This document shows, piece after piece, positions 36,325 through 64,000 of a stretch of DNA of 64,000 bases (position 1 is its first letter; each line of letters starts with the position of its first letter). The stretch covers positions 5,145-69,144 of the forward strand of contig CAZMID010000003.1 in NCBI GenBank assembly GCA_964566255.1. Reading direction: 5' to 3'. Under the pieces are notes generated by a model, which worked only from the letters and a program-made list of their open reading frames with translations, searched no databases and had not been told where the DNA came from. Made by a program: the position numbers and the translations under genes. The stretch is from an uncultured Planctomycetia bacterium (GTDB taxonomy: Bacteria; Omnitrophota; Gorgyraeia; Gorgyraeales; Gorgyraeaceae).

Positions 36325-36325
36325 T

Positions 36326-37543: not shown

Positions 37544-37560
37544 ATTTTTCCTTTTCTAAG

Positions 37561-38268: not shown

Positions 38269-38372
38269 CCTTCTACCTCCTTTTTATTGTTCGAGTAAAC
38301 ATCTTATCTGCACATTTTGTGAATCAAAATCTAGTGTTTTAGGATTCTTGTCCTATGTGTTACACCTCCTTT

Positions 38373-41521: not shown

Positions 41522-41525
41522 AGAA

Positions 41526-42404: not shown

Positions 42405-42408
42405 TTAA

Positions 42409-43878: not shown

Positions 43879-45227
43879 TAATTGCTCCTTTCGGATTTAT
43901 ATATTTTTTGTTGGCGCGACAATTCTCTTTCTTTAACCGCTTGGGTTTCGGCCGCTACTTGCTCTGGGGTCTTCTCACCCAGTATGATCGACTGGATCCC
44001 CCTGGTGTAAGTCTCAATTACCATTAAAAACTCTGATACATCCCAGGCATTAGGATGAGTGGCGTAATCCATACCCGAGATAAACTCCTGATTGATCTTA
44101 GACATATTTATGGCAGACTCTCTGTTTGCCGGCAGGTTCTTTGTTTCTCTTAATAGAAATGTCTGCTGCACGTCATCTGTAAGCCACTTTAGAAATTCAA
44201 CTGTCTCTTGAATTTTTTTAGAATTATTATTCACTATAAAACTAGATCCCGCACCTCCCCAGATCATCATTGAAAACTTATTTGAAGCCCTTGGAGGAAG
44301 CATTGTACCATAATTTAGTCCTGGGTTCATGCTTTTATATACATTAACACACCATGAACCATTAAATGCAAAGGCTGCTCTATTATTTGCAAAAAGCTGC
44401 TCTGCAGTCTTATTCACCATGGTTACAACACCAGTTGCAAGGACTTTTTCATCTCGCATCTGGCGGAATAGATCAAAGACCTTTATCCAATCAGGATCTG
44501 TATAAGGCACCTTTCCACGTATAGTATTTAATACCTTCTTTTCACCCATTATATTAAACGCATAGTTAGAGACCATGCAATCTATCATCCATATTTCTCC
44601 CCATCCACTTACTAGGCCTTGAATACCTTTTGCTTGAAGAAGTCTATTTAATTCTAAGAATTCATCCCATGTAACAGGAACCTCAGAAGAATCCCAGCCT
44701 ACTTTTTCCAATAAATCTTTATTGTACAACATCTGGATATTCGTAACATCTATAGGAACTCCATATATACCCGGTTCTACTTCAAAGGAATTCTTTCTTT
44801 TAAACACATTTACAGCCAAGGCCTTTTCAAATATCTTTTTCTTCCAGCTGGAATTATTTTCTTTCATGCTAGATGTAAGATTATAGATATGCCCTGCTTT
44901 TATAAAACTTGCAAAGTCTTTTTTTTCTCCGAGGATTCCAAATACATCAGGTAGGGTGTTTGTTTGTGCAGCTGCGCGTATCTTCTGGGTATATGCATTA
45001 GAAGGTGCATAAAGTTCAAAATTTATTTTTATTCCTGATTCAATTTCATATCTTTTGGCGAGTTCTAATAAAGCGTCTTCTCTATCACTCATCCAGTGCC
45101 AAATAGTTACAACGTCATCTTGAGAAGTTTTCTGAGAGGAACAGCTTACTAAAAAAACACTTAAAAAAACGGTAAACGAACAAATGATAAAAAAAAGATG
45201 AAATTTCCTATAACGATCATTCATCAC
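43878..45227 (-). CDS. extracellular solute-binding protein (family 1, sugar ABC)
   Basis: 449 aa. It has a signal peptide with a VSC lipobox and a bilobal sugar-binding-protein pattern. The AAGGAG ribosome-binding site is upstream. The start is GTG or the ATG 3 nt downstream. Confidence 0.8.
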   Translation of the reverse strand: MMNDRYRKFHLFFIICSFTVFLSVFLVSCSSQKTSQDDVVTIWHWMSDREDALLELAKRYEIESGIKINFELYAPSNAYTQKIRAAAQTNTLPDVFGILGEKKDFASFIKAGHIYNLTSSMKENNSSWKKKIFEKALAVNVFKRKNSFEVEPGIYGVPIDVTNIQMLYNKDLLEKVGWDSSEVPVTWDEFLELNRLLQAKGIQGLVSGWGEIWMIDCMVSNYAFNIMGEKKVLNTIRGKVPYTDPDWIKVFDLFRQMRDEKVLATGVVTMVNKTAEQLFANNRAAFAFNGSWCVNVYKSMNPGLNYGTMLPPRASNKFSMMIWGGAGSSFIVNNNSKKIQETVEFLKWLTDDVQQTFLLRETKNLPANRESAINMSKINQEFISGMDYATHPNAWDVSEFLMVIETYTRGIQSIILGEKTPEQVAAETQAVKERELSRQQKIYKSERSN

Positions 45228-45677: not shown

Positions 45678-48600
45678 TTATAAACTAGCTCCTATTGTCC
45701 TAGGTTGTCTCTTAAATGTCATATTACCTGTGTCACTATAAATAGGCACATTCATCCTTTCTTCATGCAAGTCTTCAGCATCATATTCAGTTTCTGTCAA
45801 AAGATCTATTGGCAATTTAATTGTAATCTTTACATCACTATCACTACTATTAAAATTTGGCTTTCCAATGAAATCTTTCTTAAGTGCTGTAGCTCTTGAA
45901 GATAGTATTGATATAAAAGAAGATATTGCATTATTGGGTCTATTTAATCCTATTATAGAAGTAGTGATTGTAATAATGTCTTCCTTGCGTTCCGTACTTA
46001 TAGATAAAATTCCTTTTTCATTGACAATATTAGCAATGCCTTTTAAAAACATACAAATATCTTCAGATATATCAATATTATCTACATCTATTAAACCCAC
46101 TTTTTCATCTAGTGTTGTTTTTACTGTAAGCTGCGGATATAAGCTTTTTAAACCCTGCAATTCCAGTAGAAGGTCTCGATTTATACCGCTTTCTTTTTTC
46201 ATGAGTTCTCCTATATCTAGACCTTTCGCCATAGGTCTAATAGTCTTAGAAGGACCATATAATCTCTCTAAAACACCCTGAATATGTGCGGCAAAACTAT
46301 TTCCATTATTAAAGCTAGGATCTGTGTCATCTAAAACTTCTGAGAACGCTTCTGCCAACATCTGATCACGTAAATCATCTTCAAATCCATCATTATCTAC
46401 ATAGTCATCTTGACCATTATTTGAATCTTCAATCTTATACAGACTATCATCTACCATTCTATCAAAAAGAAAACTATCATTCCCATACTCAATATCTTTA
46501 AGTCCTATTGTCAGCAACAAATCTAGCTTAAATCCTCCTGCATTAATTATGGATGTTACGACTAAACGTTCTGCCTCAAAAAGAATCTGTGCTGGCGTAC
46601 CTTGGATATGGCTTTCGGTATATTTTGATAGTCTTAATCCAAGACTGTTAGATAGACGCTTTCTTTTGTTAGATGGTATATGATATTTGTACTTTTCTAT
46701 TAACTTTTCTATGACTGTCTTGTAATCCCTTGAGACGGCCAAGAATGTAAGAGATACATTGCCTGATTCAAGACATCTCTCTTGTATTAAACGAGCTATC
46801 TTTTTATGTAATTCATCATTACTGTTTAGCAATTTTCTTAAACCGACTATTTTATGTGGTCTGAATTTCGAATTATCCTCGGTCAAAAGTACTATCTTGG
46901 CATTGGGATTTCCATCTTGCCAATCTTTAAGACGCATTACAACCCAGGGAATGCCATTTTTTGTCCACAATACAACTCTTTCCCTTTTGAATATTTTGAC
47001 ATAATAGTGCTTTTTCTTAAAAGACTTGACATAACGTATGTAACCACTCTTTTTTAGAGGTTCACTGTATTCTATACGTATATTTCCTTTCGTAATCTTC
47101 TTGATTTCAGAAAATTCCGGCATAACCTCATTATAGGTAAACACTATTTTGCCTTCATCGTTGTAAATCCGATTGTATTCATACATCTTACAATAGCCTC
47201 TTCTTTTAATATAATCATCAAGCTTGGCGTATTTAAGAAGATAAAATTTTTCTTCAATATTTCCATCTTTTTCTTCGTTTACCTTTACAAACCATGCCAC
47301 TGTCTCTGTTCCTGGTGAAAAATCCTCATCTACTATATAATCGTCGTTAAAAAAGAATATCGCTCTCCTGTTATCTCCAACTTTCAACCCTCTAACTCTG
47401 ATTATACTCCTATTAGTAAGCTTTTTAAATTTTGAACTAATTTTTCCGCGAGCCTGGGTAGAAAAACTACCTATAAATTCATCTTTATCCTCAAGTTCTA
47501 CATCTACAGTTACAAACTCATCCTTTTTGGCTTCTGGATTTAATATTGAAGAAATACCAAAGGCCCCTGTCACATAGTTATCTTTGCCCTTGCGCCACAA
47601 TATTAAATTATCCTTTTTAAAGGAAGACACATATGCTTTTATATAGAAAAAATTGCCACCTTCATCTGTGGTGCCTCCTATTACTATATAAGTATCAGTT
47701 AATTCTATTTTTCTGTTCTTATGTGGAAATGTCTCATGTAGATCTCCTGCTTCATTAAAAATTTCTTCATATACTTTCTTTCCTCTTCCATCTATATCTG
47801 AAACAAATCTTATTACATCTCGCACATTCTTAGTCTTTCCTTCTCCAATTTTAATCCTTTGTATTAAAATACGCGTTTTTTCGCCAGGAGTACGAACTAT
47901 CCAACTAGTATCTCCATTTAACGAAAATTTCATCTTACGGCCTCCTGGTATTTTTCGACCCTCAACAAGTACCAAACCATGCTCCTCTAATAAGCTATCT
48001 AAAAATTCGTAAAAATCATTATTATTTATAGAACCTTCCCATTTATCCAAAAACTTCCCTGTCCTATAATCTACAAAGGCAATATTGTCTTCCTCAACGA
48101 TCTTTTTTCTTTTCTCGATATCTTTTTGGTCGGGTTCATCTAAAAAGCTTCCTTGTGGAATATCTGAAATCTCTATATCTAGTTCTGAAGATAACGTTAA
48201 AAGCGCTTGTCTTGCCTCTTCTGCTACCTCCAAGTTAACTCCTTCCATAAGCTTCTTTAAATGAGGAATAAATCTTCTGTCTTTTAGCTCAGTTACTTTT
48301 TGAATCAATTTTTCCATGGCTTTAGTAATTAGCGGATTTAAGCTGTTTATTAGGAACTTAAATTCATTGATTCTAGCTATGTACTTCTCTATTTCATCAG
48401 TTCCAGAAACATCTGGTTTTCTAATTACTGTTTTGCCTACAAATGCTGTCTGCGGTAATGCTGAACTATTAAACTCTTCTGAAATATTACTAGCTCCAAA
48501 TATAAAATAGCTTCTACTTTCTACCTCATTACGGATGTGTTTTGGTATTGAGTCCAATATTTCTTTTTCTCTTTTTTCCTTCCTTGCCTTATTTAGTGCT

Positions 48601-51600
48601 ATAGCCCAATGTACAATTGCCTTATTAAGATTTTTTTCATCAATACCGCTTTTCGTATAATAAATACTACCAAGTTTATAATATGCATCTACAGCATTAG
48701 ATTTTGATTTTATAGCCTCTTCTAGTGCTCCAATTGCCTTAGAGAAACTCTTTAACTCTTTGCAATCTATTGCATAATATGCACAGCCAAGATTATACCA
48801 AGCTTCTCCATATTTTTTATTGAGATTGGTTACTCGTTCAAGAATCCTAGCTGCCTCTTCAAATCTACATTTCTCTAAATAGACTCTTCCTATATTATTA
48901 AGTAACATCGGCATATACCCGTTCTTACTAGATTCATAATAATATCCTGCAACTCTTTCCTGCGTAATCTCAAAAACTTTCTCTTTATCTATTCCAGCTA
49001 GGTTCAAAAGCATATAAAATAGCTGAGCATTGGCAGCTAATAAAAGGTCTTTTTCTACTTTTTGCTTTTTAGTTTCATCGGATAGGCCCACACTTTGTAA
49101 TAACTCAAATATATCTTCATCCTTATCTATCAATGCATTTACCAAATGCCTTATAACAGGTTTTGGCTGGCCATTAGATAAATAATCATTTTCTTGTATT
49201 GATAACCAAAGATCATTAGGAAACTTTCTTAATAGATCATAATCACTTGCTCCTGAACTTTTTACTAAACTATAAAAATCTATATCTTTATCTTTGAATA
49301 ACTCTTCTACAATTAGCTCTGCCTTACCCTCAGAACAACCTAGATATTTTCTGAAAAAATCTTTCATGTATTCCTTCTGTTGATCTTCAGATTTATAAAC
49401 TACAGATTGATGGCTGAATGGATTTATTTTATATATTATTGAACTACAAGAAATAGATAGTAACAATAGAAAACTAATCATCATAGAAAAGATAGGATTT
49501 AAACCACCAATCCCTGCATATATAACATCAGGGAGATTATTTATAGGACTGGCTGCCTGAAACCACTGAAGGATAAATTGTATAGCTTCAGGAGATTTAA
49601 AACCTATAATTAAACCTACTATTATTAGTGGAATAATGGAACTTCTTAGTATCACTGAATTAGAAATAGTGGATTGCTTGAGAGATTTAGACCTTGATGT
49701 ATCAGCTTTATACGGCCTCTCAGGCGCTCCCATTAATTTTCTTAATTTCAAAAGTGCTTTTTCTTTAATTTGTCCTATCTTGTCTACTTCAAGCTCAAGG
49801 TCTAAGGCAATATCCTCCAAAGGCCTCTCTTGGATAATCGAATAGATAAGAATCTCCCTTTCTAATGGTGATAACTGCAATAACGCTGACTCTAATTTTT
49901 CCTCTCTATCTATCTTATCCAATAACTGGTCTTCCAGTTCTAATGAATCTGGATCAGTAATAAAGTTTTCAAGGCTCTCTGAATCTGAGTCAGATTCACG
50001 ATATTTAAAATTGCTTAAATAGACTGGATGTTCCTGACTCAATAATCCTATTACATATTCTCTAACTGTCTGAGGCCTAACTCCCATATATTCAGCTAAT
50101 CTTTCGATGTCTTTTTCAAATATTTCTGCCACACTATATATTTTTAAACTATTCATAGCCCTCTTTAGCTTCTTTATCTTACCCTGCATATGCGGTGGGA
50201 GCGGCATTGGTTTTTTAAGGCGGATATACTCTAAACATGCTGTTCTAATAAAATGTGGGGTATATGAGCTAAACCTCCCATATTGACTATAACGCAATCT
50301 GGTCTTTTGGGCTGCATCATATAAGGCAACTACCCCTGCATTTACCATATCTTTGAAGTCATGTTTATAATTTAAATAGGGACTACCATACCATTTTATA
50401 TATTGCTTAGCTATAATATTCGCTATATATAAATGACTTTCTATAAGTATGCGATTTGCTTCTTTTCCTAAATTCTCTGCCCTTTCATCATCTGACTTGA
50501 GATTGGCGTTTAATATCAAAATAATAAGCGCTTCCTCTTCCTCGATGCTTAATTTATGGTTATCTTCGTAATGCCAAATCTCTCCTATACCTTTTTTCTT
50601 ATAATCCTCAAATATAACCTCTGCCTTATCTACCTGCTGTCTTGTCGGGCCATAATGAACCAATATATACCTTTCTGGATCTCTTGCCTCAAAAATTCCC
50701 TTAAAACCCCTCCTATTAACATCAGGGTATTCTTTTAATAAAGCCTGTATTGCTTCATACGAAAATCCGCGCAATAGGCCTTTCCTCACTAACTGTGATC
50801 TAAATCCCAATAAATTATAAAGCTTGTTAATCTCTTCTTCTAAGGATGTAGCTAAACTATCAAAATCAAAACTGTCTTCAAAATCTTCATAGTCATCATC
50901 TAGAAGCAGCCTAGATTGGGTCTCAGTCAAGATATTATTTCTTGCCATCCTTTTAATTTTAGGATTACGTTCCTTTTCTTTCCAGGTAAATAAAAGATTA
51001 ACAAAATCATCAATAAAGCGTTCTGACGTAAAACCATCTAGGTTATATAATGTCTTTTTCAGCCGTTCATTTAAACATGCCTTAAGGGACTGCTTAATCC
51101 CTTTTGTTAAGACCTTTTTCCTCTTGGCCAATTTTGCCAATAACATAGTTTCGTACCTATAAGTAACATTTTTATTCCAAATGTTCGTAAAATCATCCTT
51201 CAGTGCCTGTAGGCTTTTTCTAGAATCTAGTATTATCCCTGAGGCCTCTTGCACTTTTAGATCATGATATATCGGCCTATACCCAAATTGACTTTCTGAA
51301 TCAAGAGTGCAAAGGACTGCTTTCTGGATCCAGTATTTTGTGTTTTTAGCAAATTGATCTAACTTCATTGAAAATCTAAAGCTTTTCAATTCTTCCAACT
51401 CTTCCAATAAAGCCTTTATTTCTTCTAATGTCATTGCGCTATCAATAGAATCCCTAAAAGAATCTATCTGTTCTCTAAACTCACTAACTTCTATCTCTTT
51501 TCTCATAAGTAAACCCTGATACGCTTCTGCTATTTCTTTTATTTTTTTATTTATTTCTACCTCATCCAGATTAGATTCAATAAATAAATGGAAGGTAATT

Positions 51601-54600
51601 ACTGGTGGCAATCCTTTTATTCTAGCTAATTTTAATAAGTCTTGTATCTTTTTCTCTATGCTATTCCCATTATATCTGATTAAATCACAGATTATATACT
51701 TTGGAAGGTTGTACTTAGTAGCTAAATCACTAATATTGTCGCTTAATGCTTCAAAATCTCCTATTTCAAAACCATCTTTTATAAGAACAGTGATCAGTGA
51801 AATAGGTAATTTATATGTAGCGCTAATCCTCTTTGAATTATATGAAATCTTTTTAAGGACTCTCTCAAAATCTGCATATTTCTTAATTACATGAATCAAA
51901 GTAGATCTTGAAACTCCGTATTTCTCCATAAGCTCCTTAAATGCAGTAAATGTGAATCCTTTGAGAAGAAGCATGTGTACATGATTTTCTATAAATGGTT
52001 TAACAGTCTCATCACCTTGTTTAAACTCCTCGATTGCCTTTTTAACCCCTGCACCAAACCCTTCTATATCAAAAAACTTCTCTACCTTATAAAGCGTGTA
52101 GTTCCCAGGATTCCTTAGAATCTTCCAGCTATTGGCACTTAACAGATAATTTTCCATGAAGTTCTTCTTTAAAAACTCTTCTCTTTCTCTTGTAATCTTC
52201 TTATTTGTCAATTTTCCAATTAAGTCTTTAGCTACTTTCTTCTCAATCCCAATATTAATTAAAGAATCTACTAAAAACTGTGAGTTTTCTAATCTCCTCT
52301 TTTTAGATAACGCATGCTTAGCCAGATACCTCTCCATATGATCGGTTTTACATGCCTTAAATATCAATGATTTTGTAGCGTTGTATTTCTCCTTCAAACC
52401 TAAATAAGACTCATAAGTTAAGCCTCTATAAAGCATCCAGCTATAGTACAACTCTGTAAATGCATTATCCTTAAATATCTTTCTTTCCTCTTTTAATCTA
52501 GATACGAATCTTGTCATGCCTTCCTCTCTCCAATGGCCAGAAACTATTTTCTTTACATCTGATCTAGTCAGAAATCTGTTTCTAGTAAAATTCTTTAGTG
52601 ACTCGAGGTGTAATTCTGAACTCTGGTAAAAATTAAATATACTATTAGTGATTTTCTTGGAGAAATCCATACTAAAACTATTTTCTAATAAAAGCTCTCT
52701 GAGTTCTTCCTTTAAAACGGCATTTGGTATAGGAGGCATTTCTATTAATGGTTTTATCAGTTGTTTCTTTTTTTCTTTTATTAATCGTGGTTTACTAATT
52801 CTACTATCTTCAGCTTCTATCTGGCGCTTGACTTTAATCTTCCCAGTATCTTTTGTAGAAACCTCTAAGCTAATAATCTTAGCATCTTTTAAGAATTTAA
52901 TAGTTTTAGGCAAGCCATTTTTAAATTCAACTTCCACCCACTCATTTGCATAGTTTGAAAATTTCGTCCAATAGATACCTATTTCTAGTTCACCTGCACC
53001 TCCCAACTGATGTAAAATAATATTATCCTTTAATTCTAAAAGTCTCTTTTGAGGGAATTTCTCAAATGAATCTATGATATTTCTTTTAGTATCCAGGATT
53101 AAACTTAAGTCTTTAGCTAGAAATATCTTTCCTTCCTTAATAAGTCTAGCCTTTACCACGATTCCATTAATGACATAAGCCTTTACGTCATCATGCTTCG
53201 GAAATTTACTAAAGTTAGCCCAATTCCTTCCTCCAAGATGTAGGTTCCCGTCTCCATCAAGGTGATGATGTTTTATTACTGCTTTCCTCAGGCCAGCCAA
53301 TCTTTCTTTTTTCATCCCTATAAAAGAATCTACTTCTTTCCTCTTATTTAAATCTACTAAGATAGAAAACTTTCTAATAATACCATCCTTTATAAACTTC
53401 ACTTCTCTTGGTAATCCTTTTCTAACTATAAATTCTACTTCTTCATTTTGATAGAGAGAAAATCTTGCCCAACGCTTGCCGCCAATATGTAATTCACCAC
53501 CATCACGCAGATAAAATCTTTTAATCGTTACATCCTCTAATTTGCTAAACTTAGACCTTCCGTAGCTATCGTAGAATGTTTCAATTAACTGACCGGTCTT
53601 ATTATTCCAAATTTGAGAAAATTCAACCACTAAGTCATCCTCTAAGAATTTAACCTTATCAACAAAGTCTCCCATCATAGTAACTTCAACTAAGGCATTT
53701 GCTCTTTTGCTAAATCTAGCCCGTTTCGTACCATCTATCCACAACCCCCCAGTTTTACCAAGTTGCATTCTTATAACTCTCTCTTTCTTAATCTTTATTA
53801 TTGGTCGCTGAAACAATGGAAGAACTGTTGCACTGTTATATATAGGTTCTATAACTTTTGAAAACATTTCACCTTTTTGTGAAAGAAAATCCCTAGCAGG
53901 GACATTTGAAAGATGTCTCCTCTTTTTTAACTTCACTGATTGGAATGTTTGTTTATTTGGTAGAATAAGTGGGACGGCCCCTCCGACAGGTTCAGATGAA
54001 GACAAGGTTTCATCTCTCTCGCGTCCCACCCACTTGACAATAAGTAAAGTAGTCAAAATTAAAGCAATAGTTATTCCCAATGGCCCCAAGAGAGGAGATG
54101 CAATAAGTACACCGGCCTTTCCAACAGCTGCAAATAAAGTACCTGGCAAAAAGATAGCAGCTAATATACTCGCAGCAATACTAAGCTTTCTGAAACTCCC
54201 TGTAGTTACTAAACTAAGCTTTTCTTTTTGCTGCTGGTTAGGCCTATCCTGGTCTTTATCTATTCTCTGGCCATGAAACTCTGAATCTCTCTTTATATCC
54301 TGGCTACCCTTAACATTCTCAGTTCCACTCCTGACAGCTTCAAGTTTTTCTTTGGCTTTTCCAAGGCGCACCGTGTAATAAAACCTCTTTCCCTCTTCAA
54401 AGACAATATTATCTACAGCCTTTTCTGCTCTCTTAAGAGCCTCCTCGGCTTTATTTAAATCAAGGTCTTCTGTTTTCTCAATATATTGAAGGGCCTTTTC
54501 TAAAATGCCAATCTGTCCATTAGTATATCCATTAGCAGCTGCGCGTAAAGATTCATAAGATTTCCTAAATCCTACGACCCTATCGTCATATTCCAAAAGG

Positions 54601-57600: not shown

Positions 57601-60600
57601 TTTGCTGGTCTTAAGTCCCCTGTAAGGGCCTGGAATATTTGCGCAACACCTCCGTCATATATTACAAGTCCTTCTTTTAGAACCGTTCTTTCGTGTACAT
57701 TCTCAGATTCTTCCCAAATCGATTCCAGCCTATCTCCTGGTACCTGAAAGCTTAAGATAACCTTTGTATTATCTGCAACATTATTTTCAAGCCAGTTACC
57801 AATGCCTTTAATGGTTTTTTCTGATGCGATTGAAGTAGAAACTCCCATTAAAAACACTATAACTACAGAAGCAGTAAGCGAGGCGACCTCTCCGAAGGTA
57901 GGACTTGACAAGGTCAGACCATTTTTGCGCCCCGCCTGCTCGTTTCCTGAAAACGTTTTCTTTTTTGGTGAAACAAAAAGCACTTCAGTTGAATTTAAAT
58001 CTTCCCTCTCTAATTTTACAGAGTTAAATGTTGATCTATTTCTAATTACACGATTTAATATTGATTTTATTGGGGATATATATGCCTTTATTTCGCTTGG
58101 TTTCTTGTCATGTGCTATATCTTCAAGGTGAGCTTGTTCATGGGTTAGAAGTTTTTTCTGGAACCACTTAGGTATTAACTTCATTAAATCTTTATTTACA
58201 TAAAGTGTTCCATCTGGGGAAACATAGGATGGGTCTTTTGATGTAGAATCATCTTTACTAGATGCAAATTCTTCTATAAGACCAAAGTCTGGGCCTCGTA
58301 TTACACCTCTCTTAACAAAATAATGAATTATATTTACAAAAGCTATAAGACTGGTCTGTAATAAGTAGAATGTAACAGCGATAAGGCCTGGCAAAGATAA
58401 TAGTGCTATACCAATTGTAGCTACTATCGGTATATCTGAAGATGCACCATAGGCAATAAATGAAGGAGCAAAAAATGTTATTAAGCCTGCAAAAAATGAT
58501 GTTAAAGAACCTATTAAAGAAACAGAGGATTTTTCTTTACCTAACTTACCGACAACATTTTGATTTATTGTTTCTTTAATCTCTCCAGTATTCAAATCTT
58601 TTATTAAAAGAGGGCTGTAATCATCTGCATTAGAAAAATATACAAAATTAAGCTCATCAAGTTCAAACTCTCCTTTTGCTATATCTTGACATTCTTCCAA
58701 TATTTCAAGAAATCTTTCATAGTCTTCTGGTTCTTTATGTATATATCCTATAGAAATATGTCCTAGAAAGTTTCTTCTTGATGTGCTAGTATGCTTATTT
58801 ATAGCTTGATTTAAATCTAAAACTCTATTTAATTCTTCGGGCTCTGAAAATCTTACAAGTACGGAAATAGTCCTCTTTAACCCAATCTCACCTATTAAAA
58901 CTTTTATCTTCCCTGGGGTACCTATATCTTCAAAAGAATTTCTTAATTGTTCTAACCTTTCCTCATATTGTTCCCTGGTAACACCAGTTTTTGCACAATC
59001 ATATTTCTCACTTGGGTCTACATCGCATATTGTCATATGAAAAGTCTCGGGCCTAAGAAACTTAACACTATCCCCTAATCCTTTTCTCTTTAATTCATCT
59101 TGTAAATCAATTAATAGCCTAGACAACTTATTTTCTTGCCCTACAGGAGCAACACATGTAAAACCAGAGAAGGCCAGTAAATTTCCATGCTTATCAATTT
59201 TCTCTCCTCTACCGAAATGTGCTACACTATCAAAAGGTTTGCCCTTATATTTAGTAATAGTTCTGCCTTTCAATCTACTGTTATAAGTCTCGAATTTATT
59301 AATACCTCTTTCAACCCTGCCAAGTTCAAGTGCAACTTCCTTCACACTACGATCTTTTACCTTTAGGGTCTTAAATAAATTGCGCAGCATCTCTTTATTC
59401 TTCTCATCGATTTTTACTTTCAACATTACTCTGAATTCAATATCGCTCATTGCCTTATTTAGTGAATCACCGATATAATGTCCAAACCCCTTAGATAAAT
59501 CAATAGCTATAGTTAAATAACCGCTCTTTTTAAAATCCTCTACTATAGCCTTCAATCCTATTAACATAGACCTTAAAAACTCACTCTTCTCTTTTCCAAT
59601 CAAATTATCAATAGCATCTATATCGATTCCATTGGATATTAAATATTCATAGAATAACTTATATTTATCACCTTCATAATAAAGCTGCATGGCTGCTAAT
59701 CGTTTTGCGGCTTCCATGTCATCCGGATTGGCCATATATTCATCTTTTAAATATGCCAATTGTAATAGGTCTTCATACTCTCTCTCTGTAAAGTGGCCAT
59801 ATTCCTTAAGAAGCAATGCCTTTAATATAGTTATATAACTTTCATTATCCTGGTTATTAAACACTCCTCTTAAGAATACAGGGTGTATTTGCAATATCCT
59901 CCTTTTAATCTTTCCATTCTTTCTGTTTAAAATGAACCTTATAGCCATTATAGGATCGCCAGGCTCATCTGAAAAAACCACATCTTCCAGCATATCCTCA
60001 ACACCTATCTCTTTTGCCTTGCTATGCAAAAATTCTATCTCACTAGCAGTAGGTCTAATCTGGGTCTCAGCTATTCCAGCTATACAGTGAGAAACCTTAC
60101 TAAGGTAATTCTCTATCCTTCTATTTAACTCATTTGGATTATTTATGACTGGGATTAACTGTCCTTCTATGAAATCTCTGAAATAATAACCTGATTTAAA
60201 AGCAGGGTTTACTTCTTTTAAATATCCTGCTACTTGTCGTTGTTTATTGAGATTTATTAATAATTGATGGAGCTTGAGGTCCTGTAGGATAAGGTCATGC
60301 TCTTCTTGTCTTTCTTCTTGTTCTGTGCCAACTGTATTATTATGGCCTAATTCATGGAAAAGCCTTTCAGCAAGGATTATTCTTGTAGCTTCAGGATAAA
60401 TATTATTAGAAGCCAATAATGCTCTTATAAATTCCTCTCCTAAGATTATTTCAACCTGTTCTGTCTTAGAATTATAATATCTTACTGTATTTATTGGGAG
60501 CTTTGAATTTACTCTTATTACAATAGGAGGGGCTCTATTATCCTGACTGTTTAAAAGATCCTGTAAATATATGCTCAATTTAGTATCATTTTTTACTAGA

Positions 60601-63600
60601 TTTTCTATTAAATCAAGCGAATCATTTAAAAACGCTGCCAAATCTCCTGCCTCACTGCCTGTAGGAGTAAATCTCTGGCCTTTAGCCTGAGATAAATCAA
60701 GCCTTGCCTCTAATGAATCTACAAAATTACCTTCCAGATCAGAATACTTTACAGTATGGTCTGTGGGGGCAAAGGTTTTTACAGTGCTTTCTCTTAATAA
60801 TATAGTCTTAAGGTTATTCCATATAAACCCTTTTATGAGATTCTCCCAGAATAAATCTGCAATTATAAAGTAAGGTATTGCAACTAAGAAATGAATCAAT
60901 GCTTTTATAATTGAGATATTTAAGATAGGGAGACTGGTTACCAAGTCAACATAATCTACGAATGCCTTTTTCTTGCCTTCTAAGATCTTTAACCTTGCCT
61001 TAAAAGGCTTTAGGCCATATCTAAAGGAATCCTTCACAGAAAAACCATTATGCATGAATGGGCCTAGTATCAATGCAAATGGAAACACATAGAAGAAAAA
61101 CTGTGCTATTACACCCCAAGGATGCATAGGTGCAACTAAGAATATATTTAACAATAAAACTCCCCATTTAATAGATTCGCGGAATTTACCATATAGGGAG
61201 GCAAATGACTCAGTTGAATATTTAACATCCTTTGCACCTCCTATAAAAACTCCGCTATTACCGCCAAGAGCATCTATTGTCTTCTGAGCATCATTTGGAA
61301 CAAGCGACAAGAATGTTAATACCAGACTCCAAAACCTCATTAGGTATAGGCCATAACCCTTCAAAAATCCATATTCTTTTACAAGTTTTCTTACGCCTCC
61401 TGCTGCTATTGCCTGTGCAAATACATATTGCATAGATATAAATAATAAAGGAATAGACAGATATGCAAAAGGTGTAAAGGATACAAAGAATGCAAACGAG
61501 TAAATCATGAGGTTATAGCGTGGTATAATCACCTGATTTATATAATGGTCATCATTTGCAAGCAATGTGAATTTTTCTGCCCAGTGCATAATCTTACTTT
61601 TCAAAAGCTGCTGGAAGTGAATACTTATATTGTTATCAATTATTAATCCTCCGAACCTATTTACAAAAGATGGCATACCGCCTTGCGTCTTTTCCCTGCC
61701 TCTGCCCATTGTTATACCAGGCGCATAATCTGCCTTATAACCTGCCTTTAATATCTCTTGAGCAGTCATAGAGTCTTCTATCTTACTTGCAGGAACGCCA
61801 AAATCCCTCATTGCTGAGAGGCGCACAATGCCTGGACCATACATGGCTGGAGTGCCAGTCCTTGTCTCAGAAGGAATTAAGCGGGTATTGAATACATCTT
61901 CTGCTATCTCCTGGTCTTTCGCAGTAGGTGTCATACCTTGGTCAGCATCCCTGAGGTCAGTACCCACTATACCTAAATCAGGTCGTTGGGTGAAATCCCA
62001 TGCAACAAAAGGAAGCATGAATACATCAACTGGGAATATAGTATGTTCCCAGTCAGTATTGAATATGACTGCGTCTTTTTCGCCTGCTAAATGCCTCAAG
62101 GCATGTGTCCAGTTATCAACTTTATATCCCCAGCCAGAATGAAATTCAGAATCAGGAGGCACACCAAATCCAGCTATTGTTGCAAGGTGTCTTTCAGGGC
62201 AACCTTCTCCAGCTCCTTCCCCTTCTTTTACCCAGCTGCCTTCCTGCCACCCGAGTTCTTTTAAGTCTTCCATCATAACTGGGCCATTAACCTTACCAGC
62301 AAGCTCAACTTGATAACTAAACATACCCTGATAATATTCAAGTATCTCTTCATCTGTCGGATTACGGTCAAGTTCCATTACATGTTTTAAGAATATCCTG
62401 TATGCTACAAGGGATGATTCGTGAGCAGTCCTTACTGTCTTCTCCACGTTATCAACCCTAAACAATACCCACTGATGGATAATCTGGCGTGAAAGCATGA
62501 TTTCAATAAGGAGTTTTCTTAATACTTCGTCATCTTGTATGCTTGAGAAATCTCCTGCTCCAAAATCCGTATTGTATTTCTCTGACAACATTGCACGATC
62601 TGGATTTGTAATATGCTTAAGTTCTATCTCGAGGTTTTGCAAAATTGTATCTCTGGACATTGCATTAAAATCATATCGTGCAGACATAGGATTATCTCCA
62701 TCATGTCCCAAAGGTAAAATACCATATTCCAACATCCCTTCTAATGTATCTTCAAAACTCATGTAAGGGTCGCTAAACTTTTTAATAAAGGCCTTTTTAG
62801 CATCTCCAGTTAAATTACCTAATCCTGCAAGATAATCAAGGTATGATAACCAATCACCTCTATATGCCTCTTTAATTATCCTGAAAGGTGTTTTTATGTC
62901 TCCACCGCCTTTTCCTTCTGGATGAGGAGTATCATCATCCAAAGAGATCCTTGTAACCACAGCAAACTGCTTCCAGCTAGTCACCTTGGTTATTACCCTT
63001 AAAAGCTGACCTGGGTTTGTTCGTATAAATTCCTTTATATCTTGAAATTCTTCTTTGCTATAAAGATTGACCTTATTAAAGAATTCTACGATCTTCTTTT
63101 TTGCACGAGGGTTCTGGATATCTGCAGCATCAGATAATGCTTTCCCCTTACCTAATGCCTCCCTAAGTCCTTGTGCCTCCTCTTCAGTAATCATGCGGTA
63201 TTTTAACAGCGTTTCATTTATTAGGATCTCATGATATACGTCAGTCAAGTAAGGATCATTCTTTATCTTTTCAATATCACTCTGTTTTATCTGGTTATAT
63301 GAATTTATATCCTTCCAGTGACCTTGTTTTTCAAGCGCATGTATTACTGCTTCTGATAACAGATGCCACCAGCTGCGTAACGATACCATAGCATTTAAAA
63401 AGAGGATTATAGAACCAATACCAAGCCCTATTAAAGGCAAGACCCCCCATGAATATAATACACATAATACTGTCAATACCGCAAATGTCCCGACCCATAA
63501 TGTGGCAAGTATTTTAAAGAACCTTACCTTCTCGCTTATCCTTTCCTGTGCTTGCGGGTCAGTTCTACCAATATATTCCTTGCTTGCTTCATAGATATCT

Positions 63601-64000
63601 ATCAATCCTCCTATCCTATACTTTACAAAGAAAGCAACTATTGGAGCTGTCTGGACTAGTTGCCACCCGAATAACAACGCGAATGGTGCGCTCCATATTA
63701 AGCTTATTAGGCCTCCTGGAGTCATAGCAAGTAATACATTTAATGCAATAACAAAGGCTGCTGTGCCTATTTTCAGTAACTTGCGGCTTTGGGTGCCTTG
63801 TGCAAATACATGAGGAAATGTATATTGTCTATAACCATCAGCTTTGTATTTAGCTTTCAAATATTTACGTATAGGATCAAGAATGATGTTGTCTCTATTG
63901 TCTTCCTTTGTTTTCTTAATATCTTTGGAGTCCTCTTTCCTGTTTACTATATCTTTCCTTACATCAACAAGTAATCCTCTAAGATCTAATTCAGGTCTTT
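45678..64000 (-). CDS. Giant multidomain membrane protein, 5'-partial. The ORF tracker starts it at a TTG at 63860, but the frame stays open with no stop through to 64000, so the gene probably begins beyond the window. The C-terminus and stop are at 45678.
   Basis: It is 6,060 codons from the TTG, plus about 47 further open codons to the window edge. I counted and checked several embedded modules at the nucleotide level: transmembrane clusters, two HExxH motifs, a 2H phosphoesterase, an SLT domain, four ~80-aa repeats, sigma-70 regions 2-4 and TPRs. Confidence 0.8.
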   Translation of the reverse strand, partial: RPELDLRGLLVDVRKDIVNRKEDSKDIKKTKEDNRDNIILDPIRKYLKAKYKADGYRQYTFPHVFAQGTQSRKLLKIGTAAFVIALNVLLAMTPGGLISLIWSAPFALLFGWQLVQTAPIVAFFVKYRIGGLIDIYEASKEYIGRTDPQAQERISEKVRFFKILATLWVGTFAVLTVLCVLYSWGVLPLIGLGIGSIILFLNAMVSLRSWWHLLSEAVIHALEKQGHWKDINSYNQIKQSDIEKIKNDPYLTDVYHEILINETLLKYRMITEEEAQGLREALGKGKALSDAADIQNPRAKKKIVEFFNKVNLYSKEEFQDIKEFIRTNPGQLLRVITKVTSWKQFAVVTRISLDDDTPHPEGKGGGDIKTPFRIIKEAYRGDWLSYLDYLAGLGNLTGDAKKAFIKKFSDPYMSFEDTLEGMLEYGILPLGHDGDNPMSARYDFNAMSRDTILQNLEIELKHITNPDRAMLSEKYNTDFGAGDFSSIQDDEVLRKLLIEIMLSRQIIHQWVLFRVDNVEKTVRTAHESSLVAYRIFLKHVMELDRNPTDEEILEYYQGMFSYQVELAGKVNGPVMMEDLKELGWQEGSWVKEGEGAGEGCPERHLATIAGFGVPPDSEFHSGWGYKVDNWTHALRHLAGEKDAVIFNTDWEHTIFPVDVFMLPFVAWDFTQRPDLGIVGTDLRDADQGMTPTAKDQEIAEDVFNTRLIPSETRTGTPAMYGPGIVRLSAMRDFGVPASKIEDSMTAQEILKAGYKADYAPGITMGRGREKTQGGMPSFVNRFGGLIIDNNISIHFQQLLKSKIMHWAEKFTLLANDDHYINQVIIPRYNLMIYSFAFFVSFTPFAYLSIPLLFISMQYVFAQAIAAGGVRKLVKEYGFLKGYGLYLMRFWSLVLTFLSLVPNDAQKTIDALGGNSGVFIGGAKDVKYSTESFASLYGKFRESIKWGVLLLNIFLVAPMHPWGVIAQFFFYVFPFALILGPFMHNGFSVKDSFRYGLKPFKARLKILEGKKKAFVDYVDLVTSLPILNISIIKALIHFLVAIPYFIIADLFWENLIKGFIWNNLKTILLRESTVKTFAPTDHTVKYSDLEGNFVDSLEARLDLSQAKGQRFTPTGSEAGDLAAFLNDSLDLIENLVKNDTKLSIYLQDLLNSQDNRAPPIVIRVNSKLPINTVRYYNSKTEQVEIILGEEFIRALLASNNIYPEATRIILAERLFHELGHNNTVGTEQEERQEEHDLILQDLKLHQLLINLNKQRQVAGYLKEVNPAFKSGYYFRDFIEGQLIPVINNPNELNRRIENYLSKVSHCIAGIAETQIRPTASEIEFLHSKAKEIGVEDMLEDVVFSDEPGDPIMAIRFILNRKNGKIKRRILQIHPVFLRGVFNNQDNESYITILKALLLKEYGHFTEREYEDLLQLAYLKDEYMANPDDMEAAKRLAAMQLYYEGDKYKLFYEYLISNGIDIDAIDNLIGKEKSEFLRSMLIGLKAIVEDFKKSGYLTIAIDLSKGFGHYIGDSLNKAMSDIEFRVMLKVKIDEKNKEMLRNLFKTLKVKDRSVKEVALELGRVERGINKFETYNSRLKGRTITKYKGKPFDSVAHFGRGEKIDKHGNLLAFSGFTCVAPVGQENKLSRLLIDLQDELKRKGLGDSVKFLRPETFHMTICDVDPSEKYDCAKTGVTREQYEERLEQLRNSFEDIGTPGKIKVLIGEIGLKRTISVLVRFSEPEELNRVLDLNQAINKHTSTSRRNFLGHISIGYIHKEPEDYERFLEILEECQDIAKGEFELDELNFVYFSNADDYSPLLIKDLNTGEIKETINQNVVGKLGKEKSSVSLIGSLTSFFAGLITFFAPSFIAYGASSDIPIVATIGIALLSLPGLIAVTFYLLQTSLIAFVNIIHYFVKRGVIRGPDFGLIEEFASSKDDSTSKDPSYVSPDGTLYVNKDLMKLIPKWFQKKLLTHEQAHLEDIAHDKKPSEIKAYISPIKSILNRVIRNRSTFNSVKLEREDLNSTEVLFVSPKKKTFSGNEQAGRKNGLTLSSPTFGEVASLTASVVIVFLMGVSTSIASEKTIKGIGNWLENNVADNTKVILSFQVPGDRLESIWEESENVHERTVLKEGLVIYDGGVAQIFQALTGDLRPAKLLVDVMWRGTLGDLRELHASKSPFVYSDKGRSKISYWKGERGFRFKIINAFGHWKLKDPLAGNTVEWSQWQPVAGENAWAGVLGPLQIYFKENGKEYLPDAIEMQLAEETARAAIFLQAENGGIRMAPKGTWSPQEPGKNPFRYKWMYDEISTENNLSWYAAFRMLYEITGKTTYKKAMDNVAGYLKLSFDSERGVFNQGMHYDEDKGEWIVNPIFATDCQTWAIDVLGADIIDKWFGDGTSYRLWKESKELAGIFDDNGNIIAVDFTDRGDNGIKSVEWTAGAIEACAILADYYSKSHPDWAEECEKDAVTMYAHMKTMAVQIGEEIAYPYANRRAPTGHGWFAAGGVLSTASTAWMGLVELGFNPFSLGAREIPGLIRVTEKAAENIVKPKTRKVIKFPIQEEKTAPKPKKEIKLKIDVEAIAWGISGSWPGGDAYSCWVDGLFDLSDAKSLRITFPRNQSGTNIFVRLLKDKAMGAADIGRSPKKYTIPENGMVEIPISDFPVSKATLKNIEQISVHSGSKAWYSPLDQGENKRAQFNKIEKVKEVELHGSLTPQELEEKTLSRNTPIEEIMARYHVPLVDKISSAIKSEKTEKVAVSGILSIGILTIIFTHFGLPGLIALGLLAIGSIFIRNSFKQGNSSLFSISIRPENRRRIGSRISLKKLMSVLFVGFLVFVPLSPHFTNEGFVASNVAYGANSGTRLEDYSFENEIRRGVEDTWDDERTYSTLKRHFGSLEKFTAFTWFMILQESYIKGSVRVMATSHKDAKGAMQIRSTPDNPSTDTWKDIREDLGVNWTDGDVYVPYKNTRGGTHYFAMLLERFESIRLAVGGYNAGPHRIEEYGNNIPPFRETQRYVKIIMSNYEDYIDRVVVKHSTELDKASFLEKVPLRKYFEEIVKETYKLCKFDNINDGQLDAVRRGLDLSWYIARARSEQDSIYVHDRIAELDQIVFRATYINKAKKAIEKASIALKDIKNLDVKILREAHRLAMAVEENVIGGLLEYDDRVVGFRKSYESLRAAANGYTNGQIGILEKALQYIEKTEDLDLNKAEEALKRAEKAVDNIVFEEGKRFYYTVRLGKAKEKLEAVRSGTENVKGSQDIKRDSEFHGQRIDKDQDRPNQQQKEKLSLVTTGSFRKLSIAASILAAIFLPGTLFAAVGKAGVLIASPLLGPLGITIALILTTLLIVKWVGRERDETLSSSEPVGGAVPLILPNKQTFQSVKLKKRRHLSNVPARDFLSQKGEMFSKVIEPIYNSATVLPLFQRPIIKIKKERVIRMQLGKTGGLWIDGTKRARFSKRANALVEVTMMGDFVDKVKFLEDDLVVEFSQIWNNKTGQLIETFYDSYGRSKFSKLEDVTIKRFYLRDGGELHIGGKRWARFSLYQNEEVEFIVRKGLPREVKFIKDGIIRKFSILVDLNKRKEVDSFIGMKKERLAGLRKAVIKHHHLDGDGNLHLGGRNWANFSKFPKHDDVKAYVINGIVVKARLIKEGKIFLAKDLSLILDTKRNIIDSFEKFPQKRLLELKDNIILHQLGGAGELEIGIYWTKFSNYANEWVEVEFKNGLPKTIKFLKDAKIISLEVSTKDTGKIKVKRQIEAEDSRISKPRLIKEKKKQLIKPLIEMPPIPNAVLKEELRELLLENSFSMDFSKKITNSIFNFYQSSELHLESLKNFTRNRFLTRSDVKKIVSGHWREEGMTRFVSRLKEERKIFKDNAFTELYYSWMLYRGLTYESYLGLKEKYNATKSLIFKACKTDHMERYLAKHALSKKRRLENSQFLVDSLINIGIEKKVAKDLIGKLTNKKITREREEFLKKNFMENYLLSANSWKILRNPGNYTLYKVEKFFDIEGFGAGVKKAIEEFKQGDETVKPFIENHVHMLLLKGFTFTAFKELMEKYGVSRSTLIHVIKKYADFERVLKKISYNSKRISATYKLPISLITVLIKDGFEIGDFEALSDNISDLATKYNLPKYIICDLIRYNGNSIEKKIQDLLKLARIKGLPPVITFHLFIESNLDEVEINKKIKEIAEAYQGLLMRKEIEVSEFREQIDSFRDSIDSAMTLEEIKALLEELEELKSFRFSMKLDQFAKNTKYWIQKAVLCTLDSESQFGYRPIYHDLKVQEASGIILDSRKSLQALKDDFTNIWNKNVTYRYETMLLAKLAKRKKVLTKGIKQSLKACLNERLKKTLYNLDGFTSERFIDDFVNLLFTWKEKERNPKIKRMARNNILTETQSRLLLDDDYEDFEDSFDFDSLATSLEEEINKLYNLLGFRSQLVRKGLLRGFSYEAIQALLKEYPDVNRRGFKGIFEARDPERYILVHYGPTRQQVDKAEVIFEDYKKKGIGEIWHYEDNHKLSIEEEEALIILILNANLKSDDERAENLGKEANRILIESHLYIANIIAKQYIKWYGSPYLNYKHDFKDMVNAGVVALYDAAQKTRLRYSQYGRFSSYTPHFIRTACLEYIRLKKPMPLPPHMQGKIKKLKRAMNSLKIYSVAEIFEKDIERLAEYMGVRPQTVREYVIGLLSQEHPVYLSNFKYRESDSDSESLENFITDPDSLELEDQLLDKIDREEKLESALLQLSPLEREILIYSIIQERPLEDIALDLELEVDKIGQIKEKALLKLRKLMGAPERPYKADTSRSKSLKQSTISNSVILRSSIIPLIIVGLIIGFKSPEAIQFILQWFQAASPINNLPDVIYAGIGGLNPIFSMMISFLLLLSISCSSIIYKINPFSHQSVVYKSEDQQKEYMKDFFRKYLGCSEGKAELIVEELFKDKDIDFYSLVKSSGASDYDLLRKFPNDLWLSIQENDYLSNGQPKPVIRHLVNALIDKDEDIFELLQSVGLSDETKKQKVEKDLLLAANAQLFYMLLNLAGIDKEKVFEITQERVAGYYYESSKNGYMPMLLNNIGRVYLEKCRFEEAARILERVTNLNKKYGEAWYNLGCAYYAIDCKELKSFSKAIGALEEAIKSKSNAVDAYYKLGSIYYTKSGIDEKNLNKAIVHWAIALNKARKEKREKEILDSIPKHIRNEVESRSYFIFGASNISEEFNSSALPQTAFVGKTVIRKPDVSGTDEIEKYIARINEFKFLINSLNPLITKAMEKLIQKVTELKDRRFIPHLKKLMEGVNLEVAEEARQALLTLSSELDIEISDIPQGSFLDEPDQKDIEKRKKIVEEDNIAFVDYRTGKFLDKWEGSINNNDFYEFLDSLLEEHGLVLVEGRKIPGGRKMKFSLNGDTSWIVRTPGEKTRILIQRIKIGEGKTKNVRDVIRFVSDIDGRGKKVYEEIFNEAGDLHETFPHKNRKIELTDTYIVIGGTTDEGGNFFYIKAYVSSFKKDNLILWRKGKDNYVTGAFGISSILNPEAKKDEFVTVDVELEDKDEFIGSFSTQARGKISSKFKKLTNRSIIRVRGLKVGDNRRAIFFFNDDYIVDEDFSPGTETVAWFVKVNEEKDGNIEEKFYLLKYAKLDDYIKRRGYCKMYEYNRIYNDEGKIVFTYNEVMPEFSEIKKITKGNIRIEYSEPLKKSGYIRYVKSFKKKHYYVKIFKRERVVLWTKNGIPWVVMRLKDWQDGNPNAKIVLLTEDNSKFRPHKIVGLRKLLNSNDELHKKIARLIQERCLESGNVSLTFLAVSRDYKTVIEKLIEKYKYHIPSNKRKRLSNSLGLRLSKYTESHIQGTPAQILFEAERLVVTSIINAGGFKLDLLLTIGLKDIEYGNDSFLFDRMVDDSLYKIEDSNNGQDDYVDNDGFEDDLRDQMLAEAFSEVLDDTDPSFNNGNSFAAHIQGVLERLYGPSKTIRPMAKGLDIGELMKKESGINRDLLLELQGLKSLYPQLTVKTTLDEKVGLIDVDNIDISEDICMFLKGIANIVNEKGILSISTERKEDIITITTSIIGLNRPNNAISSFISILSSRATALKKDFIGKPNFNSSDSDVKITIKLPIDLLTETEYDAEDLHEERMNVPIYSDTGNMTFKRQPRTIGASL
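48576..48893 (-). other. TPR-like repeat block inside the giant protein at about aa 4990-5095
   Basis: …RFEEAARILERVTNLNKKYGEAWYNLGCAYYAIDCKELKSFSKAIGALEEAIKSKSNAVDAYYKLGSIYY…. Confidence 0.5.
49725..50468 (-). other. sigma-70-family module (regions 2.1-2.4, 3 and 4) embedded in the giant protein at about aa 4465-4712
   Basis: …ANRILIESHLYIANIIAKQY… matches region 2.1. …DMVNAGVVALYDAAQKTRLRYSQYGRFSSYTPHFIRTACLEYIRLKKPMPLPPHM… matches regions 2.2-2.4/3.0 (compare RpoD GYKFSTYATWWIRQAI…IRIPVHM). …LSPLEREILIYSIIQERPLEDIALDLELEVDKIGQIKEKALLKLRKL matches region 4.2. Confidence 0.75.
52791..53753 (-). repeat. four tandem ~80-aa protein repeats of unknown fold inside the giant protein at about aa 3370-3690
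   Basis: The recurrent pattern is G.LHIGG..WA.FS……V.V.F..G.P…KFIKDG…. The four copies start GGLWIDGTKRARFS, GELHIGGKRWARFS, GNLHLGGRNWANFS and GELEIGIYWTKFS. Confidence 0.6.
55011..55418 (-). other. SLT-family lytic transglycosylase domain inside the giant protein at about aa 2815-2950
   Basis: …FMILQESYIKGSVRVMATSHKDAKGAMQIRSTP… carries the catalytic ES and the GxMQI motif. …AVGGYNAGPHRI… carries the AYNAGP motif. E2839 is encoded at 55344-55346. Confidence 0.75.
58701..59228 (-). other. 2H phosphoesterase (LigT/CPDase-like) module inside the giant protein at about aa 1545-1720
   Basis: Two H-x-T/S-x motifs lie about 93 aa apart: …ETFHMTICDV… and …NFLGHISIGYI…. Confidence 0.5.

Follow-up and report, generated by a model that had tools for sequence, protein, structure and literature searches.

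The 64,000 nucleotides (nt) analysed here were taken from contig CAZMID010000003.1 of an uncultured bacterium (assembly GCA_964566255.1) and are called the window in the following. They carry on the minus strand the distal part of a giant gene, which heads a conserved operon of pilZ, sugar-uptake and glycoside hydrolase family 2 (GH2) genes, the giant-gene locus published for Omnitrophota. In the reading we prefer, and which we consider probable as a whole, the product is a giant multi-pass membrane protein of this locus with the mode of action proposed below. The identity part of this reading is near-certain; the functional chain is put forward tentatively. The Omnitrophota giants are functionally unexplained, and each well-resolved example adds constraints. 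This giant is comparatively short and non-repetitive and presents three testable modules, thus it is more tractable than the giants of 40,000-147,000 amino acids (aa).

The open frame and its continuity between assemblies

One frame of the minus strand was free of stop codons over 6,106 codons, from position 63998 at the window edge to the stop codon at 45678-45680. The initial annotation had described this stop-free run correctly and had given the stop as TAG; the codon is TAA. Over the same span the other two minus-strand frames contained 599 and 711 stops. At this density of about 0.1 stops per codon an open run of 6,106 codons is beyond chance. The listing of open reading frames (ORFs) gave 45678..63860 (-) with 6,060 aa and confirmed the annotated TTG start at 63858-63860. 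Since the 46 codons 5' of this TTG are likewise without a stop, the start of the gene lies outside the window, and the expectation of a protein longer than 6,060 aa was borne out by a contig of the Joint Genome Institute (JGI), on which the product was called at 10,277 aa.

The other 37 genes on the minus strand served to train a codon model. Per 300 codons, the in-frame log-likelihood exceeded the off-frame one by 168-336 in all twenty full tiles of the giant frame, compared to a mean of about 250 in the 37 neighbouring genes, and apart from the short last one all tiles were gene-like. Degraded codon usage had been named beforehand as a sign against the gene. It was not observed: the tiles were typical of the neighbours, and the codon frequencies of the giant frame and the 37 genes correlated with r = 0.975. 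These neighbouring genes end with TAA (20 genes), TGA (12) or TAG (5); a reassignment of a stop codon was rejected, as all three are in use. The giant frame is confirmed as a real gene and not a chance open run.

The JGI contig (Ga0118720_1000612, 57,520 nt) matched window positions 35264-55620 with 99.97 % identity, and none of the 7 mismatches was located in the giant gene. Two short contigs from other samples were 100 % identical to the window where they overlapped, and a fourth contig (European Nucleotide Archive, ENA) had a 99.8 % match to the last 1,333 aa of the giant. The continuity of the gene is confirmed by these four other assemblies, with 99.8-100 % identity over the gene parts covered. 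An assembly chimera was rejected on the identity of independent assemblies across their overlaps. The start called on the JGI contig is situated 38 nt from the contig end, almost at its edge, so that 10,277 aa is a lower bound. The gene has a size of at least 30.8 kb, and the window contains the distal 60 % or less of it. In searches of genome contigs and metagenome contigs the first 400 aa of the window ORF had no match, and a search with the exact 40-mer at the window edge had none either. All 7 mismatches to the JGI locus (L001, 20 kb) are packed into 59 nt of the MFS transporter gene (window 42999-43057), a pattern that resembles a short tract of recombination or a patch of strain variation.

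That the frame is an artefact or dead sequence, i.e., a chimera, a gene with missed stops or frameshifts, a frame with a reassigned stop codon or an untranslated remnant, has to be seen as very improbable. Such an explanation draws on the uncultivated state of the organism, on the 5' end outside the window and on a gene that is known here from sequence alone. It is opposed by the lack of any stop in a frame whose two companions are full of them, by codon statistics equal to the neighbours in every tile but the short last one together with the use of three stops, and by the agreement with the four other assemblies over the covered parts. In addition, the catalytic motifs of a lytic transglycosylase (SLT) module and a 2H phosphoesterase module are intact, and a block shared with a relative has a ratio of non-synonymous to synonymous distances (dN/dS) of about 0.4.

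The operon, the host and the published giants

The PilZ-domain gene directly 3' of the giant (Table 1) has 54 homologues, and its synteny is kept in relatives. It is followed by genes for a solute-binding protein, an MFS_2 sugar transporter, two ABC permeases, a GH2-like hydrolase, two proteins of 235 and 405 aa, a 900-aa TPR protein and a ROK regulator. No secure family was obtained for the 235- and 405-aa proteins (window 36326-38268, minus strand), the larger one having a weak Glyco_hydro_72 match. Since both genes occur in most operons examined and the 405-aa protein has 69-78 % identity to its counterparts in the loci that were compared, both are probably members of the operon.

The host is assigned to Omnitrophota on the basis of its leucyl-tRNA synthetase (LeuRS) and PilZ sequences. 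The LeuRS encoded in the window is 72-80 % identical to those of Candidatus Omnitrophota metagenome-assembled genomes and one single-amplified genome, and at most about 58 % identical to those of other phyla. Some of the matching Omnitrophota genomes are labelled 'Planctomycetia' in third-party assemblies. Homologues of the neighbouring PilZ protein also carry the name Omnitrophota in their source records. The G+C content of the window is 35.7 %, and diderm markers are encoded in it (BamD/YfiO, a TolC-type OEP, TonB_C and AcrB), in agreement with the AT-rich, diderm context compatible with Omnitrophota that had been noted before. A passenger of a mobile element was rejected as an explanation, there being no integrase or transposase genes in the 64-kb window.

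Downstream of most Omnitrophota giant genes one or more pilZ genes have been reported, in a layout of giant, pilZ, solute-binding protein, permeases and glycoside hydrolase (West-Roberts et al. 2023, bioRxiv 10.1101/2023.11.21.568195). The same study listed SLT and TPR among the domains of giant proteins; its type protein is the 'Archaeovorin' of Velamenicoccus archaeovorus. Further traits of the published locus are a divergent SecA_DEAD or SecA preprotein-binding domain in the chain, a C39 or S8 peptidase near the N-terminus and, upstream, genes of a type II or type IV secretion-like cluster; the last two concern parts of the locus beyond the window. The window locus resembles these loci in the Omnitrophota host, the very long single frame, the numerous transmembrane helices, the divergent domains in a mostly unannotatable chain including SLT and TPR, and the pilZ gene directly 3' followed by solute-binding protein, permeases and glycoside hydrolase. 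It differs in size: the published class has more than 90,000 bp (>30,000 aa), while the window giant, known to 10,277 aa as a lower bound, so far attains a third of this.

A recent catalogue comprises 916 Omnitrophota proteins of at least 10,000 aa (Nielsen & Lui 2026, bioRxiv 10.64898/2026.06.07.730766). The catalogue means are about 22 helices for proteins of at least 10 kAA (thousand amino acids) and about 2 % of residues in helices. Among the catalytic flanks GH2 prevails, and 80 % of the long proteins are sequence singletons. Class 1 of the catalogue ('many distinct domains, none dominant', at least 10 kAA) is similar to the giant described here, considering the 10,277 aa on the JGI contig, four distinct families that each occur once except TPR, membrane clusters with a helix density of about one per 300-370 aa, a mosaic, non-repetitive chain, a GH2-like flank gene and a near-unique sequence. 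As differences, the set of SLT, 2H, sigma-70 and TPR is outside the two large domain modules of the catalogue, and no mobile-element genes are nearby in the window.

The view of the initial annotation that giant mosaic genes are reported from Omnitrophota agrees in gene class and locus layout with both papers. To call the gene the prime candidate for a novel system was an overstatement, as class and layout had already been described. Neither a sigma-70 module nor a 2H phosphoesterase is mentioned in the main text of either paper, and a literature search for Omnitrophota giants with a sigma factor found nothing relevant. What seems less familiar is the embedding of a whole sigma factor, an SLT and a sigma module that apparently share one side of the membrane, and the unrelated giants in close relatives.

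Modules, membrane clusters and the topology of the chain

Profile searches were run in overlapping tiles of the 6,106 aa. Five domains had originally been read by eye, and profiles recovered four of these, the 2H phosphoesterase, SLT, sigma-70 regions 2-4 and TPR; the HExxH peptidase had no profile. The 2H module scored 23.8-24.7 bits with PF08975 (cut-off 21) and had weak matches to LigT_PEase and TIGR02258. Both motifs were present by reading (H1654-M-T-I and H1747-I-S-I). The SLT module scored 31.7-33.4 bits with PF01464 (cut-off 21.3), covering profile positions 30-106 only, with weak matches to NF008631 and PHROG 2013 (lytic tail protein). Its motifs QES...GAMQ...YNAG were intact, the region of the catalytic glutamate being picked by eye. 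The module is like SLT/GH23 enzymes (PF01464) in the score above cut-off and in the E-S, G-x-M-Q and Y-N-A-G motifs; it differs in its location between transmembrane clusters of a giant chain. HExxH strings were seen twice, with about 0.14 expected by chance, and no peptidase match for them was obtained in Pfam, NCBIfam or PDB sequence searches. A single-sequence AlphaFold2 model of aa 1101-2060, which include both strings and the 2H module, had a mean confidence (pLDDT) of 35, too low for the model to be of use.

For the sigma-70-family module TIGR02937 gave 54.1 bits against a cut-off of 42.9, RpoD_Cterm aligned over positions 5-226 of 238 (E 2.4e-15), FliA_WhiG over 23-223 of 224 (E 3e-15), and PHROG 351 matched with E 5e-25. 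The module was aligned to solved SigA/RpoD chains across regions 2-4 (E 1e-6). Sigma70_r4 was above its cut-off (26.2 vs 24.1), Sigma70_r2 alone was below (13.5 vs 24). Of the residues with which E. coli sigma-70 contacts the -35 element, several are replaced in the module as aligned. Known examples of membrane-tethered or extended sigma factors are ECF factors whose C-terminus is fused to TPRs or to transmembrane segments, and a proteolytic release is known of the pro-sigma-K type. The window module is comparable in that a sigma-70-family domain is directly followed by transmembrane helices and TPRs. In contrast to the two-domain ECF type it has a region 3 and best scores with RpoD-, FliA- and RpoH-type factors, and it is internal to a protein of more than 10,000 aa instead of a free-standing gene. 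A helix-turn-helix-like stretch 5' of the sigma module (51924-51995 (-), giant aa 4018-4041) had only weak matches: HTH_11 with E 0.007, PADLOC mad1 with 1.3e-4 and Mor with 0.045.

Table 1 Features of the giant gene and its downstream operon in the window, and domains found in the giants of related loci
Feature	Position (strand)	Residues of the giant, or content	Basis
Transmembrane cluster 1	63378..63779 (-)	aa 74-207, ~4 helices	Kyte-Doolittle peaks 1.7-2.4
Transmembrane cluster 2	60861..61493 (-)	aa 836-1046, ~4-5 helices	hydrophobicity
HELGH string	60342..60356 (-)	aa 1215-1219	sequence reading, no peptidase profile match
2H phosphoesterase module	58629..59198 (-)	aa ~1601-1790	PF08975 and both H-x-T/S motifs
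Transmembrane cluster 3	57840..58523 (-)	aa 1826-2053, 3-4 helices, encloses HEQAH	hydrophobicity
HEQAH string	58128..58142 (-)	aa 1953, inside cluster 3	sequence reading, no peptidase profile match
Transmembrane cluster 4	55545..55817 (-)	aa 2728-2818, 3 helices	hydrophobicity
SLT/GH23 lytic transglycosylase module	55029..55361 (-)	aa ~2880-2990	PF01464 and motifs
Transmembrane hairpin 5	54036..54179 (-)	aa 3274-3321, 2 helices	hydrophobicity
Four tandem ~84-aa repeats, no known family	52791..53798 (-)	aa 3401-3736	self-BLASTP E 1.7e-19
Sigma-70-family module, regions 2, 3 and 4	49728..50489 (-)	aa 4504-4757	profile and structure-chain alignment
Transmembrane hairpin 6	49437..49655 (-)	aa 4782-4854, right after the sigma module	hydrophobicity
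TPR repeats	48618..48911 (-)	aa 5030-5127	TPR_11 E 5e-11; consensus TPR structures E to 5e-22
Block common to the L084 giant	46776..48389 (-)	aa 5204-5741, no known family	45 % aa identity to P0001
PilZ-domain protein, 118 aa	45264..45620 (-)	57 nt 3' of the giant stop	PF07238 E 5.5e-7
Conserved downstream operon	33622..45227 (-)	solute-binding protein to 900-aa TPR protein	
Giant of L084		proline dehydrogenase (E 3e-63), HD, FHA, Fis-type HTH, GFO/IDH oxidoreductase, radical SAM, Xre HTH	
Giant of L086		HATPase_c, GNAT, metallo-beta-lactamase	
Giant of L089		signal peptidase II, methyltransferases, GNAT, transglutaminase	
Giant of L093		HD_4 and RelA/SpoT, methyltransferase	
Giant of L096		nucleotide kinases, fucose pyrophosphorylase	

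About 11 % of the residues belong to recognised modules and about 6 % to helices; about 83 % of the chain had no family match. The array of ~84-aa repeats was the sole internal repeat in a self-comparison of the chain, and nucleotide tandem repeats were absent from the giant gene. The PADLOC library returned one 20-residue helix-turn-helix match only, the PHROGs the sigma and SLT modules only. A HMMER search with the last 976 aa against 1.84 billion representative proteins yielded two matches, protein P0001 (3,173 aa; 47 % identity over about 550 aa) and an 85-aa fragment. Word-indexed protein searches with aa 1-1200 and aa 4301-4900 had no match at E<=1e-5.

The assumption that the domains are split by transmembrane clusters held in the hydrophobicity analysis (Kyte-Doolittle, 19-residue window): about 20 transmembrane helices, or one per 300 aa, were predicted in six clusters, which part soluble segments of 450-1,450 aa. 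By this measure the window product is a multi-pass membrane protein. The chain would be inserted co-translationally into the inner membrane, and its successive segments would be held at the envelope. The SLT segment would face outward, since the loop ahead of the preceding helix, the last of cluster 4, has 6 lysines or arginines in 15 residues (positive-inside rule), and might cut murein, either that of the cell itself or that of a host or prey cell. The binding-protein transporter and the GH2 enzyme encoded downstream would take up and process the freed sugars, while PilZ may couple the locus to cyclic di-GMP. For the sigma module the most plausible role is that of a regulator sequestered at the membrane, which would become active only upon proteolytic release. 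A fast replacement of segments, as suggested by the related loci, would fit a protein that meets a changing outside partner. The cell-wall part of this scheme is the published degradation hypothesis, applied by us to this locus.

Several points weigh against this reading. The functional steps were read from genes, i.e., from sequence only. The domain scans cover the 6,106 aa, and at least 4,171 N-terminal residues lie beyond the window. About 83 % of the chain is without assignable function, and a role of giant proteins in predation or in the degradation of cell walls has itself been published as a hypothesis only. The defining domains of the Archaeovorin and Dockerin-type classes were not found in the 6,106 aa. 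Glycosyl transferases, methyltransferases, NUDIX, HEAT, SecA_DEAD, dockerin and TSP3 were without match, and for SecA_DEAD or the SecA preprotein-binding domain this was the case even at E<=2. On the evidence available, judged on these 6,106 aa, the window giant appears to be neither an 'Archaeovorin' nor a 'Dockerin-type' protein. A further difficulty concerns the topology. From the SLT to the sigma module, hairpin 5 (aa 3274-3321) is the one segment of membrane-grade hydrophobicity, and with two helices it predicts both modules on the same side of the membrane if the chain is intact. This is in conflict with the need of an SLT for the periplasm and of a sigma factor for the cytoplasm. The chain would have to be cut, with its parts sorted separately, or the simple model of its topology would not apply; a third possible reading is that one module is used in a non-canonical way. 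The simple topology model was also doubted by West-Roberts et al. (2023) for their giants.

The cutting of the chain leads to an alternative that we consider rather doubtful, a polyprotein or an operon in one frame. The giant would then be a carrier that proteases, either its own or host ones, process into individual functional proteins, the sigma factor being freed into the cytoplasm for transcription and the SLT into the periplasm or exported. The modules (sigma regions 2-4, 2H, SLT) are whole and otherwise known as free-standing proteins. The modules of relatives include proline dehydrogenase (E 3e-63), radical SAM, RelA/SpoT, Xre and Fis helix-turn-helix domains and nucleotide kinases. A sigma factor is unable to act while tethered to a 10,000-aa membrane protein, and cutting would lift the conflict between the SLT and sigma positions. 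An in-frame TAA in the 6,153-codon frame of a relative points in the same direction, the two parts being apparently able to exist as separate genes. A cleavage by an N-terminal C39 or S8 peptidase was raised as a possibility by West-Roberts et al. (2023). Against a polyprotein, processing of the V. archaeovorus giant was left unsettled by the published proteomics. None of the profile searches confirmed a protease domain in the window, where the HExxH strings lack profile support, a recurring motif of cleavage sites was not noted, though no search was aimed at it, and promoter and terminator scans inside the giant gene gave no signal above chance.

Related loci and further genes of the window

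Related loci were collected by way of PilZ homologues, and the operon was present in each locus examined. They originate from short-read metagenome assemblies, in which strain chimeras are possible. A giant was located upstream of the operon in all related loci examined except two (L094 and L095). Across seven related loci the tested downstream proteins were 56-87 % identical to those of the window on the amino acid level, and the flanks aligned at 72-89 % nucleotide identity, with the alignment starting at about the stop codon of the giant. The giants themselves, mostly cut by contig ends, had at least 4,366, at least 5,665, 2,897, at least 17,444 and at least 5,751 aa. In L084 the giant is present as 2,960 + 3,173 aa. 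The last ~3,000 aa of these giants shared nothing with the window giant at E<=1e-5 except for one block in L084. At the same site some relatives carry methyltransferase, GNAT and Peptidase_A8 domains. By these alignments, the gene body is hypervariable between relatives and the operon is conserved.

L084 was the closest relative found. Its flanks are 89 % identical on the nucleotide level, and its giant shares only the one 555-aa block. This block had a dN of 0.41 and a dS of 0.97, compared to a dN of 0.07 and a dS of 0.32-0.46 for PilZ and the binding protein. A lone in-frame TAA at L084 8882-8884 splits the 6,153-codon frame into the 2,960 aa, which are cut by the contig start, and the 3,173 aa; the codon may have arisen by nonsense mutation or by an error in sequencing, or it may mark a true border between two genes. 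The giant of L093 (at least 17,444 aa on a 561-kb contig) contains HD_4 and RelA/SpoT, a (p)ppGpp synthetase/hydrolase, within the chain (L093 ~6575-7606).

A second pair allowed a comparison at closer distance. L089 (1-9873) and L091 (1-8827) have flanks with 98.3 % identity, and inside the giant blocks of about 2-4 kb are replaced by unrelated sequence. The block junctions are sharp, and both frames remain open. GC-rich palindromes of the ...GCTTCGCTCACTGCGTTCGCTCGCAATGACAGG... type occur at two of the L089 junctions (~4140-4200 and ~9815-9875), one of them inside the giant frame, and may be a small repeated element. L094 (1-3389) and L095 (1-1973) have the operon of PilZ, binding protein, permeases and GH2 without a giant upstream, where small ORFs and, on the opposite strand, a FIST-domain gene were all that was present.

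These comparisons are the basis for a further alternative, which we regard as unlikely: a variable-cassette locus, in which multi-kb segments including captured genes are swapped in frame between lineages at a fixed site, and selection sees the diversity itself (arms race, host range) and not the single modules. In its favour are the conserved downstream proteins next to giants that are unshared but for the 555-aa block, the nucleotide similarity that begins at about the giant's stop codon, the replaced blocks with open frames in L089 and L091, and the two operons without giant. The dS of the shared block exceeds that of the flanks, as though the origin of the block were more remote. The proportion of singletons among the long Omnitrophota proteins (Nielsen & Lui 2026) points the same way. 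However, the junctions in the window have no recombinase, integrase or repeat signature, short-read assemblies can join co-occurring strains at shared blocks, as may apply to the L089/L091 mosaic, and the window gene is identical or nearly so in all overlapping assemblies, thus stable within the population. A very fast ordinary divergence of poorly constrained linkers could add to the lack of similarity. If long reads confirm the replacement of the gene body next to a kept operon, the locus evolves by segment exchange and not by ordinary divergence.

A still less likely, speculative scheme combines exchange and cutting. It assumes a fixed slot ahead of the pilZ/sugar operon, into which whole ordinary genes would be captured and swapped in frame between the hairpins, with sharp boundaries; the sigma factor, SLT and 2H enzyme of the window and the proline dehydrogenase, radical SAM, RelA/SpoT and Xre regulators of relatives would be examples. 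If true, this would be an undescribed way to build and diversify a polyprotein tethered to the membrane, in which a sigma factor would be kept in store until its release by cutting. Irrespective of this scheme, our preferred reading of the window gene is the giant multi-pass membrane protein of the Omnitrophota locus.

All credible genes of the 64-kb window are located on the minus strand, and the GC skew is negative throughout. Two further envelope genes were noted for their domain composition. The AcrB-type RND pump (1,217 aa, window 25611-29264 (-)) has a C-terminal DeoR-like or winged helix-turn-helix domain at aa 1152-1197, an unusual fusion of a transporter with a DNA-binding domain. The outer-membrane efflux protein (30478-32307 (-)) has two OEP/TolC repeats and, at its N-terminal end, a TonB C-terminal domain (aa 72-137).

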